DNA of 64,000 bases from a virus. Position numbers and translations under genes: made by a program. Shown one piece after another: positions 17,442 to 48,034 of the stretch. Location of the stretch: the IMG/VR virus record IMGVR_UViG_3300021599_000885; one strand, written 5' to 3'. How positions within the stretch are numbered: position 1 is the stretch's first letter; every line of letters begins with the position of its first letter. Below the pieces are notes generated by a model. The model worked only from the letters and a program-made list of their open reading frames with translations, was not told where the DNA came from and made no database searches.

Positions 17442-17656
17442 TACTCAAACTCCCTAGAAGCATTAAACTTTTTTGCGGGTGGTGTATAAGGAGGAATAAC
17501 CTCACAAGTCACATGAATATCAGCACCGTTGGTTGCCTCAGCCATTTGGCGATATCCAGACCCAACATAAATCTGTCCGCCAACTACGGCAACCGCCATA
17601 GCACCCCAGAAAATGTAATACCACTTGGACTTTACTTGATGTTGTTTGTTTTTCAT
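17441..17656 (-). CDS. Small single-pass membrane protein
   Basis: WYYIFWGAMAVAVVGGQIYVG. Confidence 0.7.
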   Translation of the reverse strand: MKNKQHQVKSKWYYIFWGAMAVAVVGGQIYVGSGYRQMAEATNGADIHVTCEVIPPYTPPAKKFNASREFE

Positions 17657-18174
17657 TTGAACTCACACTCCACTTGTTTTCTTCTATAATGATTTTGTAA
17701 TGGTGTAACCCATCTCAAATTATCAATAGAATTGTTTGAGGGATCATTATCAATATGGTCAATATATGCAGTGTCTCTTACCCACTGCTTGAAACACTCT
17801 GGGGCATCGTCCCATTCATCTATCAAAGAGTCTGGCGGATACCTATCGATTGGTTTCCATGTTTCCATTACTGCCCTGTGAATGTCTATACGAATTTTCG
17901 ATGTAGTAAAGTTATATTTTTCTTGAATTAGTGTGCTGGTTCCTGCTGAATGTTCAAAATCTTCATAAAATCCTTTTGGAACACGACATGCGGTTGTTAA
18001 ACATTTAAGACGTTTTCTTCCACTCGCATAGTATTCAAAGTTTTGCGTATGGGTCATGAATTTATTTGATTTTGAACTGTATATCTCCCCCTCTTTAGAA
18101 ACATAATATCCAGGAATCTCTTTCCCAAATCTAACCAGTGGTTTAAATCTTTCTTCACCAAAAATGTTCAACAT
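17653..18174 (-). CDS. HNH endonuclease (NUMOD4-like N-terminus)
   Basis: YYVSKEGEIYS; IHRAVMETW; IDHIDNDPSNNSIDNLRWVTPLQN. Confidence 0.85.
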   Translation of the reverse strand: MLNIFGEERFKPLVRFGKEIPGYYVSKEGEIYSSKSNKFMTHTQNFEYYASGRKRLKCLTTACRVPKGFYEDFEHSAGTSTLIQEKYNFTTSKIRIDIHRAVMETWKPIDRYPPDSLIDEWDDAPECFKQWVRDTAYIDHIDNDPSNNSIDNLRWVTPLQNHYRRKQVECEFK

Positions 18175-18176
18175 AA

Positions 18177-18380
18177 TCAGTTCCTCTCAATAAAGGAACG
18201 CATTTCTTCCGCAAGTCTATGAATTTCTTCATCACTAGGGTAGATTGGATAATTACCAGGATCTTCTCCTTTATCAAGGAGAATATTGTAGCGATTTTCT
18301 TCCGCATTGTAGCGGTTTACAAGACGACTTTCTGCCTGCTGGAGAAGTTCCCAGCGCAGGTCGTATGGATTGCGAGCCAT
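18177..18380 (-). CDS. Small hypothetical protein (67 aa)
   Basis: MARNPYDLRWELLQQA...YPSDEEIHRLAEEMRSFI; preceded by a CA-rich leader and a late promoter. Confidence 0.75.
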   Translation of the reverse strand: MARNPYDLRWELLQQAESRLVNRYNAEENRYNILLDKGEDPGNYPIYPSDEEIHRLAEEMRSFIERN

Positions 18381-18466
18381 AGTTTTATTAAAATAGTATG
18401 TGTTTGATTTGTGTTTGTGTGTCTGTGTGTAAGATATACCTTACGCGACTAACATCAAATCTGTTT

Positions 18467-18474
18467 TATTTATA
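18467..18474 (-). promoter_or_regulatory. Late promoter TATAAATA at the start of the HNH cassette
   Basis: tatttata on the + strand, 4 nt past the gp44 stop. Confidence 0.75.
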
Positions 18475-18478
18475 TCAC

Positions 18479-19420
18479 TTACTTGAACTCACACTCCACC
18501 ATAATTTCAGTTAGTGCTGCTAGGAGGTTAATTTCCTGATCAGCCACGAACGCACATTGGTATTGATACTTAGCAATAACAAGAACGGCAGCGGGGATAG
18601 TACTGGGAGAAAGGCAACTATAACAGGAGTCATAAACCCTGCGAAGTAGGCTAGAAGCATCGTTGTCCAGGTTGGAGACCACCCATTTGCGGACTTCGGT
18701 GAAATTCTTTTCCTTGAGATGTTTAATGAGGTCATTTACAGAGATGTCAGAGAAAGAAGCAAGAATACCAGAGTCGATTTCTCCTCCTACGGAGTATCTT
18801 TGGCATTCGTTGAGGACTCGTCGCCAGTCGGGGAAATGTTTATTGATAATCTCCGCAAGTACTCTTTGATCGAATCGGACGCCTTCCGCATCCAGGATGT
18901 CTTGTAGACGCTTGAAGAAGAGTCCTGCCAGTGCGGTTTTTTCTTTCCCTTTGATCGAGAAGTCAACAACGGCACATCTGCTATGAAGGGGCTCGATGAT
19001 CTTGTTCTTGTAGTTGCAGGTAAAGATGAAACGGCAATTACCAGCAAATTCCTCAATAAACGCCCGTAGGAGGAGTTGTACATCGTTGCCTGTGTTGTCT
19101 GCCTCATCAATGATAACGACCTTGTGTTTAGCATCTGACGAAAGTGAGACGGTCGAAGCGAAGTTCTTCGCATTGTTTCGGACAGTATCAAGGAATCTAC
19201 CCTCGTCGGATCCATTGATGACATAAACATCTACCCCCAGTTCGTTACAAAGTGCTTTAGCAACAGTGGTCTTGCCGATACCAGGAGGACCTGCAAGAAG
19301 CATATTAGGAATCTCACCCTTATTCAAAAACTCCCTAAACATAGTCTTGGTAGACTCTGGGAGAATACAATCTTCAATAGTCTTCGGGCGATATTTCTCA
19401 ACCCAAATAAAATCACTCAT
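18479..19420 (-). CDS. gp44: Clamp loader large subunit (gp44, RFC-like AAA+)
   Basis: WVEKYRP, GPPGIGKT, IIDEAD, LHSRC; likely start MSDFIW. Confidence 0.95.
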   Translation of the reverse strand: MSDFIWVEKYRPKTIEDCILPESTKTMFREFLNKGEIPNMLLAGPPGIGKTTVAKALCNELGVDVYVINGSDEGRFLDTVRNNAKNFASTVSLSSDAKHKVVIIDEADNTGNDVQLLLRAFIEEFAGNCRFIFTCNYKNKIIEPLHSRCAVVDFSIKGKEKTALAGLFFKRLQDILDAEGVRFDQRVLAEIINKHFPDWRRVLNECQRYSVGGEIDSGILASFSDISVNDLIKHLKEKNFTEVRKWVVSNLDNDASSLLRRVYDSCYSCLSPSTIPAAVLVIAKYQYQCAFVADQEINLLAALTEIMVECEFK

Positions 19421-19422
19421 AA

Positions 19423-19545
19423 TCAAATCCAATCTGGTTTTTTCAATTTAGAGGAGGGAACAATCTCCCACCATTCTTTCCCATCAAAAATATACAACTT
19501 ATGCGTATCTTTGTCAAGGAAAACATCACCTTTCTGATAGTTCAT
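19423..19545 (-). CDS. Small hypothetical protein (40 aa)
   Basis: Manual translation MNYQKGDVFLDKDTHKLYIFDGKEWWEIVPSSKLKKPDWI; ATGA overlap with the upstream stop. Confidence 0.6.
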   Translation of the reverse strand: MNYQKGDVFLDKDTHKLYIFDGKEWWEIVPSSKLKKPDWI

Positions 19546-42016: not shown

Positions 42017-42247
42017 CTACCAGTCAGGATATTCCCACAGTTCTGTTGGTGTTGGTCTTTTCTTATTTGATAAAACTCTCTTCTTAGTACATTCCTTACA
42101 TTCATAAGAATAGGCAGAAGGTAAAGCACCCCTGCCTTTTCTAGTTAGATAAAAGTCATCTATCAAATTTTTTATTTCTCCACAAATCCTACACTCCCTA
42201 TCAAAAAGAAGTATGTGTTCTAGATTTATTTGATCTTCTAAGTCCAT
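42017..42247 (-). CDS. Small Zn-finger protein
   Basis: CRIC...FY...CKEC; likely start MDLEDQ, coupled to the gp17 stop. Confidence 0.7.
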   Translation of the reverse strand: MDLEDQINLEHILLFDRECRICGEIKNLIDDFYLTRKGRGALPSAYSYECKECTKKRVLSNKKRPTPTELWEYPDW

Positions 42248-43893
42248 TAATAATATTCCCACATATAAGATCTATCACCATACTCATCGGTATGCCATCT
42301 ATCTCCATCACTATCAACAAAAGTGCTTTCATCCAAACCATCCAATATAAATCCAAATGGAGCCATATCTTGTTCTATTTGATTTTTTTGCTCTTCATAA
42401 ATTCTTTTACGAATATCATTATCGGTCATCTCTTTGAAGTATTCTTGTGCTACCAACCAAGAAAATATAACCAAGCACATCGCTAGGTCATCATTACATC
42501 CTTCCTCTGCCTCAAAGGAATTATGTCTTTGAGCAAATGTTGTAAGTTCCGATATAATATCGTAATCTACAGTCAATAACTTATCATCCTCCATAAGAGT
42601 TTTTAGGTTAGAGCAACCCAACTTCTTCACTGCTGCAGTCATTCTTACACCCATCTGCGATTTCTTACCAGAGAAACCATGCCCGATAACTTGTCCGGCA
42701 CGACCTCTCATTGCAGCCATAAGCATATTTTCATATTCTAAATCATAGTGTAAAATATTAGCAACTTGTTCCCCAATATCATTAACCTCGATAAGTAACC
42801 AAGCATTATTATATCCCTTAGCAACATCGATAATAACACTTGGAAATAACATTGGTTTTATTTCATTATTTCTATACTTCGCCACTACCTTATATGGAAA
42901 CTGTGTGATATCAAAAATAATAAATGCAGAGTAATCATTTCCAAGACCACGAGCAACGTCTACGGTGATTAAATAATTGTGCTCTTCCCGTGGTTTTTCA
43001 TAAACGTCTAATCCGGCATTCCTTTTTATTGGATTTTCATAAACAAGATTTCTAAGTTTTGATGGGTTGATGAGAGTGTTGACTGATCCTAAGAATTCAC
43101 ACTCAAACTCAACCTTGAATTGTTGTTCTGAGGTGTTAGCAATAGTTTGCTCTTTCCATGCATCATCTCTACCGGGAACTTCTGACCAGTGAACATCAGT
43201 GGGAACATATTCATTTTTATTTCTTTCCGCATCATGCCACATGCGGTAGAAATGGTTCATACCCCTAGGGGTAGAAACAATAATTACCTTTGTGCTCTGT
43301 CCAGAAGAAATAGTAGGATAAACAGAGGCAAAGAAGTCATCAGCAATGTGATTTGGGATGAACGCGAACTCGTCGAGAAAGATGACATTATAGGATCCGC
43401 CTCGGACAGCAGATGACGAAGTAGAGTTAGACGAAATTTTGGAGCCATTTTCTAATTCTAAAGATCCTTTATTCCATGATATAATACCCTGCTGCATCCA
43501 CTTCGGCAAGTTTTCATAAGCAAGTTGTAATCTTCCTAGAAGATCTCTAGCAGTAGATGCTTTGTTGGCTAGAATAGCTATATTAACATTGTCGTTGAAA
43601 ACAGCATAATGTAACAAATATGAAACACAAGTCGTAGATTTACCCGTCTGACGGGGCATTTTACAGATATTAAATCTATTTTTGTGGAAATTACTAATCA
43701 GTTTCTCTTGGAATGGGTACATCTCAAAAGGCACCAGACCATGATCAAGCGACACGATCTTGATATAATTTCTAGCAAAATAAACTGGATCTTCTTTACA
43801 CTTTAAGAACTCAATAATTCTATCTTCAGTCCATTCAATGGGAGTATTAGCTTTTTTGAGCAGAGGATTGCCCAAATAAACATCACTAGACAT
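42247..43893 (-). CDS. gp17: Terminase large subunit gp17
   Basis: YLGNPLLKK, PRQTGKST, FLDEFAF, VSTP, DVARG, NDDL; start ATG at 43893 or 43899. Confidence 0.97.
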   Translation of the reverse strand: MSSDVYLGNPLLKKANTPIEWTEDRIIEFLKCKEDPVYFARNYIKIVSLDHGLVPFEMYPFQEKLISNFHKNRFNICKMPRQTGKSTTCVSYLLHYAVFNDNVNIAILANKASTARDLLGRLQLAYENLPKWMQQGIISWNKGSLELENGSKISSNSTSSSAVRGGSYNVIFLDEFAFIPNHIADDFFASVYPTISSGQSTKVIIVSTPRGMNHFYRMWHDAERNKNEYVPTDVHWSEVPGRDDAWKEQTIANTSEQQFKVEFECEFLGSVNTLINPSKLRNLVYENPIKRNAGLDVYEKPREEHNYLITVDVARGLGNDYSAFIIFDITQFPYKVVAKYRNNEIKPMLFPSVIIDVAKGYNNAWLLIEVNDIGEQVANILHYDLEYENMLMAAMRGRAGQVIGHGFSGKKSQMGVRMTAAVKKLGCSNLKTLMEDDKLLTVDYDIISELTTFAQRHNSFEAEEGCNDDLAMCLVIFSWLVAQEYFKEMTDNDIRKRIYEEQKNQIEQDMAPFGFILDGLDESTFVDSDGDRWHTDEYGDRSYMWEYY

Positions 43894-44371
43894 ATTCATA
43901 CCCCCTTTCTGGACCCCAATGTTTCATTCTGTAAGATAATCCCTGTATCGTTATACCTACATCATCTGCTGCCTCTTGTTGAGAAATATATATTTTTCCA
44001 TTTATAGAAACTTTTTTGCTATTGGGGTGCTTCTCTCCACCCTCATACTTATGGCCAAAAGAGCGACCTTTCAGTGCCTCGCTTTTCTTTCTACAAGTTT
44101 CTTTACTATGCTTCCTACCAATATTTTTTTGAGTTGCCTTATTTAAATTTTCCATAAACCAAGCATCATTGTGCCACCCACACTTATGTATCTCTCTACT
44201 ACAAACATATAAATGCTCTGGTATATCTTTTCCACCTTCACATCTTGGTGGGAAATGATGAACATCCATACCTCTCATCTGTTCCCAAGTTAATCCCCAA
44301 TTTTTTCGAGCAATATTTCTTACTGTTTTAGGACTTAACCTTTCCCTTGGAACTTTAATAATAGCAGACAC
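43886..44371 (-). CDS. HNH homing endonuclease with NUMOD3-like and HTH-like DNA-binding modules
   Basis: DVHHFPPRCEGGKDIPEHLYVCSREIH; GRKHSKETCRKKSEALKG; INGKIYISQQEAADDVGI. Confidence 0.85.
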   Translation of the reverse strand: MSAIIKVPRERLSPKTVRNIARKNWGLTWEQMRGMDVHHFPPRCEGGKDIPEHLYVCSREIHKCGWHNDAWFMENLNKATQKNIGRKHSKETCRKKSEALKGRSFGHKYEGGEKHPNSKKVSINGKIYISQQEAADDVGITIQGLSYRMKHWGPERGYEYV

Positions 44372-44392
44372 ATTTCAATCCCAATCTAAAAA

Positions 44393-44400
44393 TATTTATA
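44393..44400 (-). promoter_or_regulatory. Late promoter TATAAATA at the start of the HNH cassette
   Basis: tatttata on the + strand, overlapping the stop of the gp17 stub. Confidence 0.75.
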
Positions 44401-44419
44401 CAAGATAGACTTCACTCAT
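44396..44419 (-). pseudogene. Orphaned 5' stub of gp17 (MSEVYLV*)
   Basis: AAGGAG RBS then ATG AGT GAA GTC TAT CTT G, matching the current gp17 start MSSDVYLG. Confidence 0.65.
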
Positions 44420-44433
44420 AACGAAACTCCTTT

Positions 44434-46017
44434 TTAATCTTCTACATAAATGAACGAAGCACTAGCAGCAGTAATATTAGATGTTGATGAAATTACTGCG
44501 GTTATAAAACTATTTGGTGGAACATGAAGTCCAATTTCAGATAAATCAACATCAATGGTTGAGTTATCTGATACATGAAAAGCAGCAATAGGAGGTATTG
44601 ATTGTGCTGCTAATGTAAATAATCCAGTGCTATCTTGAGTTGCATAAAGTGATGCATTAAAATCACTTTGAGTAGTCCATCTCAAATAATTTGTAAGAAC
44701 TGGGTTCCAATATATGCGAATAACTGCTGGGTCTCCTGTTGTATTTACTGATGCAGTAAGTCTTCTAGGAAGTAAATCTCTTGTATTAATCTTACCTTGA
44801 TAAACAAGTTTATTTTTAAGAGAAATGAGATGATATAAAGAACCAGGAGTGTTCATACTATCATTTCTGGTTGTAGTCACTGAATATGGAAGTTTTGTTC
44901 TTTCAACAATACCTTCAATCGCACCAAGGAAAGAAGAACCTCTACAAGTAACAACACCTACACCACCACCTAGATTTGCAGCAACATATCCAATCTTCAT
45001 TGATGGATTGTCTAGGTGTGGTAGTTGGTTTCTATTTGAATAATGTTCGTGATGGAAGAAAATCATATCCCCATTTAGAGGATTTTCAATCGCATATCTA
45101 ATCTCACCAGAACCTAACCAACGGAAGTTGATTTGATATACATTTAACTTAGATGGGTCTAGAGTAATACCAGAATATCCAGTTCCATCAAGTTTATCTA
45201 AATTAAAATCTTCTTGGAAAGTCCAGTTTTCTGTTTGTACTACCCCTGCCTGTCTTAATAATGCATTAAAAGATATTGTTGCGGTGCTTGTAATATCAAA
45301 AGTTCCAGTTTGAGGTCCAAGAGATGTTGCTAAAAATCTTAATCTTGATTGGTCATATTCAACCAAATACAAAGCATTAAAGAGTGCTTGTGCTCTTAAT
45401 CCTTGTGCGAGTTGAGAAAGATTTCCTGCAAGTGTTCCTGAATTTACTGTTACCGCAGTAAAAGAAGTTCCATTCAGAGTGACTGTTACATTTCCATTAT
45501 CAAGTGTGGTGAAGTCATAACCCTGAATTCTTGCTTTACCACCATTTGCACGAAGAACACCAAACTTCCCATTGGTGTGTGCATATCCAATTTGAATTGC
45601 TTGTTCTTGATTGAATAGTCCTGCTCTTTGTGTAAATCCTACTGGGTTATTTGAGAACGAACCAGTAAATCTGCAAACAACACCTTGTCCTGGACGGTAT
45701 CTAATAAAGTTCGTACTTCTGATTACACCATAAGAATTTGCAGAAGAACCAGCACCAACTATAAATGTAGAGTTTGCATGAGTAGCAATTCCTGTTGCAC
45801 TGAATGTATATGTCTCAAACTCTCTTGGGTCTAATCCATAGACAGCATCTGCCTGAATTTTTGGTGTAATTGGGACTGCAATATTCTCACCAAAAGCAGA
45901 TTTAGAACAAGCACCTTCATTTAGAATATTTCCATACTCATCAGCACGGAGATAAACTTCGTGAAGTGTTCTTTCTTGATTTAAGTAGTCTTGTGTAGAC
46001 TTATTCCACTGAGCCAT
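44434..46017 (-). CDS. Probable virion structural protein
   Basis: 527 aa, beta-rich, in the late head/packaging cluster; RYRPGQG and FRWLGSG motifs. Confidence 0.6.
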   Translation of the reverse strand: MAQWNKSTQDYLNQERTLHEVYLRADEYGNILNEGACSKSAFGENIAVPITPKIQADAVYGLDPREFETYTFSATGIATHANSTFIVGAGSSANSYGVIRSTNFIRYRPGQGVVCRFTGSFSNNPVGFTQRAGLFNQEQAIQIGYAHTNGKFGVLRANGGKARIQGYDFTTLDNGNVTVTLNGTSFTAVTVNSGTLAGNLSQLAQGLRAQALFNALYLVEYDQSRLRFLATSLGPQTGTFDITSTATISFNALLRQAGVVQTENWTFQEDFNLDKLDGTGYSGITLDPSKLNVYQINFRWLGSGEIRYAIENPLNGDMIFFHHEHYSNRNQLPHLDNPSMKIGYVAANLGGGVGVVTCRGSSFLGAIEGIVERTKLPYSVTTTRNDSMNTPGSLYHLISLKNKLVYQGKINTRDLLPRRLTASVNTTGDPAVIRIYWNPVLTNYLRWTTQSDFNASLYATQDSTGLFTLAAQSIPPIAAFHVSDNSTIDVDLSEIGLHVPPNSFITAVISSTSNITAASASFIYVED

Positions 46018-46331
46018 TATTCACTCCACGATAATCTTTCTGGTTGATACCTCTGAGAACTCTTAATTTTTAAAGAACTTTGAGATTGTGATGGATAGAT
46101 ATTGTGAACAATCGCACCAGGATATTCTCCTTGAAGTTGTTCAGCGAGAGCGTTCTTATCCATCATAGAACCTTCAACCTCAAGACGATACATCTTTCCT
46201 TCCCAAACTACATCAGCAAAGAAAGACTCACTTGCGGTCTCTGGTTCTTGTGAACCACCTACATTTAAAGTTCCATTAAAATCACCATTGATGGTGATGC
46301 TTTCTTGTAAAAACTGTTGAAAACTTTTCAT
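46017..46331 (-). CDS. Hypothetical protein with capsid-targeting-like N-terminus
   Basis: MKSFQQFLQE start. Confidence 0.7.
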   Translation of the reverse strand: MKSFQQFLQESITINGDFNGTLNVGGSQEPETASESFFADVVWEGKMYRLEVEGSMMDKNALAEQLQGEYPGAIVHNIYPSQSQSSLKIKSSQRYQPERLSWSE

Positions 46332-48034
46332 TAGCATTTCCAGCGACGACGGGCTTTACAAATTGCTTTATCTGGGTCTTTTGAGCAATCAATGTTATGC
46401 ATGTCTTGCTGACCCTTAGAGCGAGCGCAGAAGGACTTTCTACGCTTTGATCTTCCTGGTCCAGGATCTTTCTCAGTTACGGCAGTCTTTAGTTTAGAAC
46501 CAGGATTCTCACGACGATAAGCATTAACTGCTTTCTGACTCATACCATCAGTTTTGTCTGACTTATTTACTTTCTGCCAATCTTCTTCCAGTTCTTCTCT
46601 CCAGTTAGAGTATCCTTCTTTTACACAGTTGGGAACCATTTTCCCACCCTTCTTTTTCATACCAACTTGCTTGTAACCATCCCAGCAAGGATCTTCTTTT
46701 GCTTCGGCAAAAGCATCTGTAGAAACACCATCAGCATAAGATGATTGACTTGGAGTTGCTCTCTTAAATCTAGGTTTTCTGCTTAGATTAGAGGGGAGTT
46801 GATTGTCTCCTACTTTTTTACCTAATGGATATTTTGGATCATATGCACTTTGCTCACTAACAAGAGGTTCTGGTTTAATCAGATCAATTGTTTCAATTTC
46901 AAGTGCCTTGAAGTCATCTCTCCAGTTGGAAAACTCATATCCCTCTTTTTTAGTTCCCCAGTTATCAGCACCAACTTTACGGCACTTAACTAATGCACCA
47001 GATGCATATGCACTTGGCCAAACGTCATATCTTGCCTTTACTTTCTTATAGCAAGCATCTTTTTTCTCATCAATCAATTGACCCTTAACTTCTGTCTCTT
47101 GTCTGAGTAACTTTAATGCTTCACGAGTAGCATCGTTGTGTCGTTGCATACCATATGAAGCATGACCAATACCAGTTCCAGGCTGAATTTTTTCACCTTT
47201 CTTAGCAGCTTCTACACCAGATTTCGAAGCCTGTTGTGCTCTACGAATTGCAGCAAGTCCAAGAGCACCAGCACCAAGAGCAAGACCACCAGCAACTAAA
47301 GGAGCAAGTTCATCAAGTTGCTCACCTTTTGGTTCAAAGTGTTGTGCTAGTTTTAGTTTACTATCACTAGGAAGTTCTAAAACATCTTCAGGTCTACCAC
47401 CAACTCCACCAGCAAGTTTTTTATTATCTCTAAACATTCTCCTAAGTGCATCAGCTCCACTTTCTCCGGGAAGAAGTTTAACTTGTTCTCTCACTATCTT
47501 TGCTTTACCCTTTCTATTTGGGTTTGGATCTTCTTTACGCTTCTTCTTTGCTCTCTTCTCTCTTTCATCCTTACTCATTGCTGCACGATCATCAGCATCG
47601 CGGCAGAATGGTTTGGTTTTTTGTCCTGGTTGTTTGGCACAAGGTTTTCCATCATACTTACCACCTGCCTGAACCCATCCACCACCAGAAAACCAGTCAC
47701 GGAGTGAGTAGTCTTTATCTTTAGCGGACTTGCCATCACGCTTACCTTCTTCCATATAAGAAGCAGCAGCATCTGTGTTGTGCTCCGTATCAGTCAACTT
47801 TGCTTGAACCCAAGCAGGAAGGTTATCTGCGTCAGTTTTCTTTGCAAGAACTCTTGCTACTTTTTGTAGATTATCAATAGACTTTTTGACCTGAGTCTTA
47901 GCCATTGAGACTTCATGGTCTTTTTCTTTTGCTTCATTCATTTTCTTTTTACGTCCCTGACAATGAGCACGCTGAGAAAACCCTTTTGGGTTGTCGCAAT
48001 CAATCGATTTTTTATATTTCTCAGACCAACCCAT
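46331..48034 (-). CDS. Modular basic, Cys-rich protein (putative polyprotein)
   Basis: 567 aa of short modules with paired Cys separated by hydrophobic-x-E; late promoter at about 48057-48065. Confidence 0.8.
   Translation of the reverse strand: MGWSEKYKKSIDCDNPKGFSQRAHCQGRKKKMNEAKEKDHEVSMAKTQVKKSIDNLQKVARVLAKKTDADNLPAWVQAKLTDTEHNTDAAASYMEEGKRDGKSAKDKDYSLRDWFSGGGWVQAGGKYDGKPCAKQPGQKTKPFCRDADDRAAMSKDEREKRAKKKRKEDPNPNRKGKAKIVREQVKLLPGESGADALRRMFRDNKKLAGGVGGRPEDVLELPSDSKLKLAQHFEPKGEQLDELAPLVAGGLALGAGALGLAAIRRAQQASKSGVEAAKKGEKIQPGTGIGHASYGMQRHNDATREALKLLRQETEVKGQLIDEKKDACYKKVKARYDVWPSAYASGALVKCRKVGADNWGTKKEGYEFSNWRDDFKALEIETIDLIKPEPLVSEQSAYDPKYPLGKKVGDNQLPSNLSRKPRFKRATPSQSSYADGVSTDAFAEAKEDPCWDGYKQVGMKKKGGKMVPNCVKEGYSNWREELEEDWQKVNKSDKTDGMSQKAVNAYRRENPGSKLKTAVTEKDPGPGRSKRRKSFCARSKGQQDMHNIDCSKDPDKAICKARRRWKC

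Follow-up and report, generated by a model that had tools for sequence, protein, structure and literature searches.

The window analysed here, a stretch of 64,000 nt from the IMG/VR record IMGVR_UViG_3300021599_000885, carries an insertion in the first codons of gp17, the gene for the large terminase subunit. We interpret the insertion as a free-standing homing endonuclease cassette, with neither intron nor intein, that occupies codon 7 of gp17 in an uncultured T4-like marine cyanophage, and we put the probability of this interpretation at roughly 0.8. The anatomy of the locus, the insertion site, its presence or absence among relatives, the selection on the enzyme, the recombination breakpoints and a series of decaying copies are directly observed. 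All features of the gp17 locus lie on the minus strand.

Anatomy of the gp17 locus

Read in the direction of transcription, the locus opens with the native gp17 ribosome-binding site (RBS), AAGGAG (44427..44432), which after a spacer of 7 nt now serves only an orphan stub of 7 codons (44396..44419; ATG AGT GAA GTC TAT CTT GTA TAA). The context around this RBS, TAAAAAGGAGTTTCGTTATGAGTGA, is identical in Synechococcus phage S-T4, where it lies 5′ of the annotated terminase start. The stub consists of native gp17 codons 1-6 plus one base (G), and GTA TAA is completed by the first bases of the insert. These first bases form a T4-type late promoter sequence, TATAAATA (44393..44400), a motif kept in the cassettes of other contigs; the TAA within it (44398..44396) is the stop codon of the stub.

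The inserted cassette spans 529 nt (43872..44400) and comprises the late promoter, a 5′ untranslated region, the endonuclease gene, a new RBS and gp17 codons 1-7 plus one base. Its left junction was set by S-T4 and by a matched pair of contigs, L016 and L226, and its right end was placed where the restart meets the base homologous to the last G of the stub. The endonuclease gene (43886..44371) encodes 161 aa from a GTG start at 44371, 21 bases downstream of the promoter and stub stop region, to a TAG stop at 43886. Stub and endonuclease open reading frame (ORF) are in one frame, with TAA and TGA between them. The replacement gp17 RBS, AAGGGGG (43901..43907), is embedded in the last codons of the endonuclease and is kept in all cassette copies and decay scars.

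The working gp17 (42247..43893, 548 aa; Pfam Terminase_6N, E 1e-21; Terminase_6C, E 2e-10) restarts as ATG TCT AGT GAT GTT TAT TTG GGC AAT, the first 8 nt overlapping the end of the endonuclease ORF. The ORF list starts gp17 at ATG 43899, where relatives have TAC, ATC or TCC; because that ATG is absent in relatives and ATG 43893 is conserved across cassette copies, we take 43893 as the conserved start. The original prediction, made from the letters of the window, had described a stub behind AAGGAG and a 7-nt spacer, stopped by the TAA of the promoter, and a gp17 restart inside the 3′ end of the HNH gene reading MSSDVYLGN, and each of these elements is present. As the seven codons of the stub are duplicated in the restart, the two parts of gp17 are not the non-redundant fragments of a gene in pieces. 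Ribosomal bypassing from stub to restart, as in T4 gene 60, was considered and is ruled out by the distance of 525 nt and the dedicated RBS.

Directly upstream of the element lies a gene for a 527-aa virion structural protein (44434..46017, minus strand; PHROG 1645 'virion structural protein', E 6e-37). It ends with TAA at 44436..44434 and is the final gene of the hypervariable gp16-gp17 interval.

Empty alleles

Both flanks of the insertion match phage S-T4, in which ~530 nt are absent; in its annotation, the terminase comes right after the structural gene. S-T4 reads TAA AAAGGAGTTTCGTT ATG AGT GAT CAG ATA TAT CTT GGC AAT CCT. It is the same as the window to ATGAGTGA and matches again at TATCTTG, which is contiguous with GCAAT, so that ATGAGTGA...TATCTTGGCAAT is uninterrupted behind the same upstream gene and RBS. 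From 43893, the gp17 of the window aligns with the whole S-T4 terminase from S-T4 codon 2. S-T4 is the best empty relative of the window, at only 76-78% identity; a closer one was sought and none was found.

The exact codons of the stub join GGNAAYCC in at least 120 IMG/VR contigs (pattern ATGAGTGAAGTNTATCTTGGNAAYCC), as the original prediction had expected for relatives without the HNH gene. Among the empty alleles listed, the 110 with enough flank show the pattern beginning MSEVYLGNPNLKKANT... behind 84 different upstream 30-mers, a diversity that fits the known hypervariability of the gp16-gp17 region (PMC3037559). For a second stub type, MSDNIYL, there are 29 empty alleles in which its codons run on uninterrupted, and stub variants follow natural gp17 alleles. 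A stub standing apart from gp17 in relatives without the enzyme, which would have spoken against an insertion, was found neither in S-T4 nor in the at least 120 contigs. The stub is, on this evidence, a genuine native gp17 start and no chance look-alike. Related genomes thus differ by the presence or absence of the cassette at one precise site, as they do for free-standing homing endonucleases.

Occupied loci in other viral contigs

The endonuclease or part of it is encoded by 33 other viral contigs at 61-97% identity, each time immediately 5′ of gp17. Full-length copies number 29, and in 26 of the 29 an ATGAGT-type stub precedes TATAAATA and breaks off at the same base; in one of the 26 (L009) the stub has been shortened by slippage between GTAT repeats. 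Three full-length copies have no stub (L019, L021 and L023), and four loci hold C-terminal gene fragments alone. These cassettes sit behind unrelated upstream genes: ahead of the stub ATG, the loci are 30-51% identical to the window, which is chance level. For stub and promoter the figure is 85-100% where a stub is present and 70-75% in the stubless loci, and in L024-L028 stub and promoter are 98% identical to the window, the endonuclease gene only ~79%.

A paralog with 57-58% identity and no stub lies directly 5′ of ATGTCT-type gp17 genes in four contigs (L186, L216, L218 and L223), and these loci may represent the ancestral, intergenic arrangement. The window's own 98-kb record contains no paralogs of the endonuclease.

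Breakpoints and co-conversion

Because gp17 is patchily mosaic, no single clean co-conversion tract is seen between the window and other occupied contigs, and matched pairs of occupied and empty contigs were needed. The pair L016 (occupied) and L226 (empty) is 98% identical for >300 nt, a stretch that ends with the stub, and ~72% identical from there on across gp17. Four further pairs (L014/L247, L024/L213, L002/L132 and L012/L075) have 83-97% identity upstream; it falls to 68-74% over the initial 50 nt of gp17 and recovers to about 86-100% later. The first three of these pairs differ chiefly in the opening 35-50 nt of gp17. The differences within pairs are concentrated within ~35 nt past GGNAAYCC (for example, CCT AAT CTA versus CCT CTG CTC). 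Tracts on the gp17 side run from ~35 nt to >1 kb, and the left edge is sharp, at the stub; co-conversion and breakpoints at the element are the pattern expected of a homing endonuclease. In L012/L075 and L008/L244 the stub differs from that of the nearest empty allele, and therefore the stub sometimes travels with the cassette.

One pair also bears on the loss of the cassette. L213 and L024 have a common backbone, with 89-97% identity upstream and 86-100% in gp17 from ~50 to ~750 nt. L024 carries stub and cassette; in L213 the upstream gene is followed at once by an ATGTCT start, and endonuclease, stub and scar are all absent. The contrast points to precise loss, or to exchange of just the first ~50 nt of gp17.

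The replacement start and its scars

All cassette copies restart gp17 with ATG TCY. The endonuclease stop comes from the codon after ATG TCY, as TAG in most copies, including the window, and as TGA in L024-L028; in L010, L012-L014, L017 and L022 a TAA stop lies one codon further on. A scan for the restart pattern returned 71 contigs, of which 21 have the full endonuclease gene and 6 have fragments of it; in the other 44 no such gene could be detected. Of these 44, 13 retain recognisable 3′ scars. In L190 and L203, ~90 nt ahead of the gp17 start, the stub is followed by just the final 24 nt of the endonuclease gene, and in L214 by about 45 nt; L158/L162/L179/L187, L174/L212 and L161/L204 keep degenerate 3′ tails in which the gp17 RBS survives. 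Within this decay series, some contigs thus have a stub that continues in frame into the final 24-45 nt of the gene.

We compared the two natural forms of the functional gp17 start. The enzyme lies upstream of 0 of 102 ATGAGT-type starts, counted on contigs with at least 600 nt upstream, and of 32 of 62 ATGTCT-type starts (p = 4e-17, duplicates removed), in a two-by-two test that ignores contig relatedness and draws on pattern-selected samples. Every stub is of the ATGAGT type. This strong association supports our inference that the enzyme cuts the empty allele and spares the restart.

The original prediction had proposed that the endonuclease brought a recoded N-terminus, likely immune to its own cleavage. 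The replacement start is there; special recoding is not. That the ATGTCT restart is unique to the cassette is ruled out by ~30 contigs that carry it with no endonuclease or scar. The restart is evidently a natural 'ATGTCT' gp17 5′ allele that involved no bespoke recoding, and it is better seen as a linked donor allele, presumably resistant, that would be carried by co-conversion.

The same scars bear on splicing. If the insert were a group I or other self-splicing intron with an endonuclease, the stub would be exon 1, spliced to GGC AAT and onwards. Such an exon would end in T and the insert in G, which matches group I rules, the stub keeps a strong RBS, the joined frame would be open, and the terL of phage ICP1 is spliced, begins with a small exon and has an endonuclease next to it (PMC10055350). 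Against this, an Rfam scan of 43500-44700 at E up to 10 returned only snoRNA-type noise, so that no ribozyme core lies around or over the ORF as it would for a group I intron-encoded endonuclease. The endonuclease ORF takes up 486 of the 529 nt, and the ~30 nt of non-coding sequence leave no room for a ribozyme core. Neither junction shows significant RNA structure, and the restart has its own conserved RBS and ATG, present also in the stubless L019, L021 and L023 and in derivatives with just 24-45 nt of insert. We regard splicing as very improbable, and a group I or group II intron is excluded as far as the sequence goes. The intron-less insertion that had been predicted agrees with these findings: the endonuclease is encoded by a separate ORF with its own start and stop, and no intron model was matched, which is the arrangement expected of intronless homing.

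The enzyme

We read the protein as a putative N-terminal HNH nuclease (residues ~11-70), a helical NUMOD-like linker and a C-terminal helix-turn-helix DNA-binding domain of the I-TevI type (~111-161). The C-terminal assignment is given by both profile and fold: residues 111-150 match Pfam I-TevI_DNA-bd (PF20987) at 28.8 bits against a cut-off of 27 (E 1.2e-6), and the modelled domain superposes on I-TevI (1i3j) with Z 6.9, a root-mean-square deviation of 2.4 over 47 residues and 30% identity. The 161-aa protein also matches PHROG 314, a homing endonuclease. The AlphaFold model has a mean predicted local distance difference test score (pLDDT) of 80.7 and a confident C-terminal domain, and shows a beta-hairpin and helix at residues 35-66, with strands 35-39 and 54-58 and helix 59-66 at pLDDT above 90. 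As a whole it resembles I-HmuI (1u3e) at Z 4.8.

The HNH identity that had been predicted is supported by way of relatives. Searches with the single protein were insufficient: a sequence search of the PDB gave nothing, and Foldseek reached no better than E 0.18. An exhaustive search brought in 184 relatives, most of them aligned over residues 11-100, and of 66 relatives 33 match Pfam HNH (PF01844), 11 match HNH_5 and 17 match the NUMOD-like domain of I-HmuI. The family profile matches the HNH domains of Cas8-HNH at E 0.02. In the 66-sequence alignment, H38, H39, G47, L54 and H62 are invariant, with the consensus HVHH..GG..N-L..C-S..H. We make the assignment because the relatives match HNH and the catalytic histidines are conserved.

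The enzyme is under strong purifying selection in its nuclease and its DNA-binding domain alike: every one of 24 copies is intact, and the median ratio of nonsynonymous to synonymous divergence (dN/dS) is 0.07 at dS 0.9. A neutral stub of 19 nt should have decayed at a dS of ~0.9; that the stubs still match natural alleles almost perfectly implies either that the cassette has entered naive genomes repeatedly and recently or that the stub is constrained.

HNH genes beside terminase genes are widespread, and the HNH protein of phage HK97 stimulates terminase cutting (discussed in PMC10055350). The enzyme could accordingly be pictured as a packaging accessory like HK97 gp74, placed next to gp17 for its function, and its gene overlaps gp17 and is probably co-transcribed with it. 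A partner of this kind would be a constant neighbour of the terminase, and this enzyme is absent from S-T4, from all 102 ATGAGT-type contigs and, in total, from more than 100 relatives with otherwise similar terminases. It bears a sequence-specific DNA-binding domain of the I-TevI type, and it is truncated or deleted in contigs with an intact gp17 start. T4-like phages package by the headful mechanism and have no cos-cutting helper. A packaging role is in our view scarcely credible.

Promoter and expression

The late-promoter sequence TATAAATA occurs 7 times in the window against 4.1 expected, a mild overall enrichment. All 7 copies are on the coding strand (0 on the opposite strand) and intergenic, and ORFs cover ~96% of the coding strand. 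Across the whole window the related ATAAATA is found 20 times on the coding strand versus 0 on the opposite strand, and CTAAATA 10 times versus 0. By this distribution TATAAATA behaves as a genuine late promoter.

No terminator-like site was found on the minus strand from the promoter (44393) to the end of gp17 (42247). The first one downstream of the late promoter is a hairpin of 9 pairs, 5 of them G-C, at 42112..42137 (minus strand), ~110 nt past the gp17 stop. The suggestion that the promoter of the insert also serves gp17 fits these observations: late transcripts from the cassette promoter would cover both the endonuclease and gp17, and full-length terminase would be made from the restart ATG. 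A T4-style hairpin hiding the RBS of the endonuclease or of gp17 in read-through transcripts was also considered and rejected, as the stretches 44440-44340, 44392-44340 and 43960-43860 fold no more stably than shuffled sequences (z +1.4, -0.5 and +0.9) and none masks an RBS.

Homing or an old insertion

The cassette could alternatively be the relic of a single ancient illegitimate insertion that no longer homes and has spread by vertical descent and general cyanophage recombination. The enzyme would then be kept for another reason, such as competition during co-infection or the gp17 RBS and start embedded in its gene. The latter would favour its retention, as for T4 segG and gene 32 (PMC2988022); the scars, however, show that RBS and start can persist after the enzyme is lost. 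The gp16-gp17 region is a known hypervariable hot spot regardless of the enzyme (PMC3037559), with the 84 upstream variants noted among the listed empty alleles, and gp17 is mosaic throughout, yet breakpoints fall at the left edge of the cassette in pairs with 98% identical upstream flanks. A nuclease motif in which Asn has been replaced by His would suit an inactive relic, but nuclease and DNA-binding domain are both under strong purifying selection. The stubs, too, are near-pristine copies of two natural gp17 alleles despite the enzyme dS of ~0.9, where a dead relic of 19 nt should have decayed. We therefore consider a relic unlikely, and favour a cassette that homes.

Several points weigh against the homing cassette as we interpret it. 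Cleavage, target and immunity are predictions from sequence, and the allele association carries the limits of sampling and relatedness given with it. The ~30 ATGTCT-type contigs without endonuclease, stub or scar make the restart not specific to the cassette, and some restarts, those of L012-L017, keep TATCTTGGCAATCC, so that the TATCTTGGCAATCC core alone cannot define sensitivity. The window protein itself stays under the Pfam HNH threshold, with no PF01844 match even at E 10; its N-terminal part reaches only Z 3.5-4.2 against HNH domains, and its lineage has the His at the motif position where the family consensus has Asn. Mosaicism along the whole length of gp17 indicates that general recombination contributes too. 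The left homology for homing would often be only the ~20-nt stub. Finally, a tblastn search of 50,697 phage records, among which close relatives of the window's own genome may be missing, found no cyanophage isolate with the enzyme, the hits being six Cronobacter and Enterobacter phages that match in the linker and DNA-binding part only.

Proposed mechanism

During co-infection, the enzyme would cut or nick the common 'ATGAGT...TATCTTGG...CCTAATCTA' gp17 5′ end of phages that lack it. Repair would copy in the cassette and, with it, a stretch of donor gp17 that varies in length, and the linked 'ATGTCT...' restart allele would escape cutting. From the stubless copies and the 57-58%-identical paralog that is still so arranged, we infer that the enzyme was first intergenic, ahead of an 'ATGTCT'-type gp17. 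The stub would have been born when the cassette entered an 'ATGAGT'-type phage whose upstream gene gave no homology; the original RBS and six codons would then persist as a dead 7-codon stub, ended by the TAA of the promoter.

It is possible, if somewhat doubtful, that the stub now acts as a portable left homology arm, as an operator, or as both, through its ~20 nt of conserved gp17 start beside the promoter. If so, the cassette could home into any cyanomyovirus, whatever fills the hypervariable gp16-gp17 interval, and repeated breaks at this point would help to set the sharp right-hand boundary of the gp16-gp17 hot spot.

A second cassette at gp44 and neighbouring genes

The window contains a second, unrelated HNH cassette (17653-18499, minus strand) in the last codons of the clamp-loader gene gp44. 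gp44 (19432..18479) ends GTGGAGTGTGAGTTCAAG TAA GTGA TATAAATA, and the cassette continues with this late promoter, a 67-aa ORF and then a classic HNH gene of 173 aa (18174..17653). It is flanked by a perfect direct repeat of 17 nt (18499-18483 and 17673-17657). The HNH gene ends in the same 17 nt, is joined by ATGA to the next gene, and the repeat includes GGAG, likely the RBS of that gene. In S-T4 (L255:1495-1520), GTGGAGTGTAACTTCAAATGA is contiguous with the next gene, which is the uninterrupted arrangement. Together, the gp17 and gp44 cases place two unrelated endonuclease cassettes of one phage in the terminal codons of essential genes, with the displaced end duplicated. A general rule may lie behind the two cases, if again a somewhat doubtful one: such cassettes would settle in the end codons of essential genes by bringing along a duplicate of the end that they displace.

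Further upstream of gp17, a 567-aa DUF6321 protein (46331-48034) ends in a conserved ...RRW(N/K)C motif, and its gene lies directly upstream of gp17 or of the cassette in many contigs (e.g. L019, L027 and L158). In the window and in S-T4, genes for 106 aa and 527 aa stand between the DUF6321 gene and gp17, and are therefore lineage-specific contents of the hypervariable interval.

Comparison with known systems

To our knowledge, free-standing homing endonucleases have been thought limited to intergenic space, or to splitting the host gene into two working pieces. The locus described here would represent a third solution, in which an endonuclease enters an essential ORF and mends the damage with a promoter, an RBS, a start codon and the displaced codons; a cassette in the start of an ORF with stub and replacement start was not found described in the literature searched. 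The metagenomic record at this single site includes two naive allele types, occupied loci, truncated copies, scars and endonuclease-free, presumably resistant alleles, and from this allele series follows a concrete pair of predicted sensitive and resistant sequences. The element borders the hypervariable gp16-gp17 island of marine cyanomyoviruses and may help to explain why exchange is concentrated there. In such genomes, gene callers will misannotate the terminase start and the stub.

Free-standing endonucleases of the F-CphI-like kind are present in T4-like cyanophages, some of them at the 3′ end of gp17 (PMC3037559; PMC6083498). They belong to an unrelated family with an Endo VII motif and lie at the opposite end of gp17, and the arrangement of stub and replacement start is absent there.

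In protein architecture the closest likenesses are to intron-encoded enzymes. With I-TevI, of the T4 td intron, the enzyme has in common the C-terminal DNA-binding family and the modular order of nuclease, linker and binding domain. Its gene also has its own late promoter directly upstream, beside sequence resembling half of a homing site; in I-TevI that sequence is the operator, and an operator role for the stub is speculation by analogy. Unlike I-TevI, it has a putative HNH rather than a GIY-YIG nuclease, a gene outside any intron and no RBS-sequestering hairpin. I-HmuI and the Mob-type HNH enzymes of T4 have an N-terminal HNH domain followed by DNA-binding modules of the NUMOD type, the order that we propose for this enzyme. 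These enzymes are often nickases. Sequence similarity to I-HmuI is low, the motif Asn is His here, and I-HmuI is intron-encoded.

In genomic arrangement the cassette is close to the free-standing endonucleases of T4 that practise intronless homing, SegF at gene 56, SegG at gene 32 and MobE at nrdB (PMC2988022). In those systems, too, a free-standing nuclease gene adjoins an essential gene, is polymorphic and is linked in cis to a target variant, flanking markers are co-converted, and expression signals of the neighbour lie within the endonuclease gene (PMC2988022). They stand between genes, whereas the cassette stands inside an ORF at codon 7, leaves a dead stub and itself supplies RBS, ATG and codons; cleavage is here a prediction from sequence. 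Insertion into a coding region with no intron or intein, and with a host gene that stays functional, is known from mobE in Aeh1 nrdA, mobA in the T4 topoisomerase gene 39/60 and seg in gene 43 of phage 25 (PMC2988022). There, two polypeptides reassemble into the working protein, whereas at gp17 the restart repeats the seven codons that were displaced, the piece left upstream has no function and a single full-length terminase is encoded.

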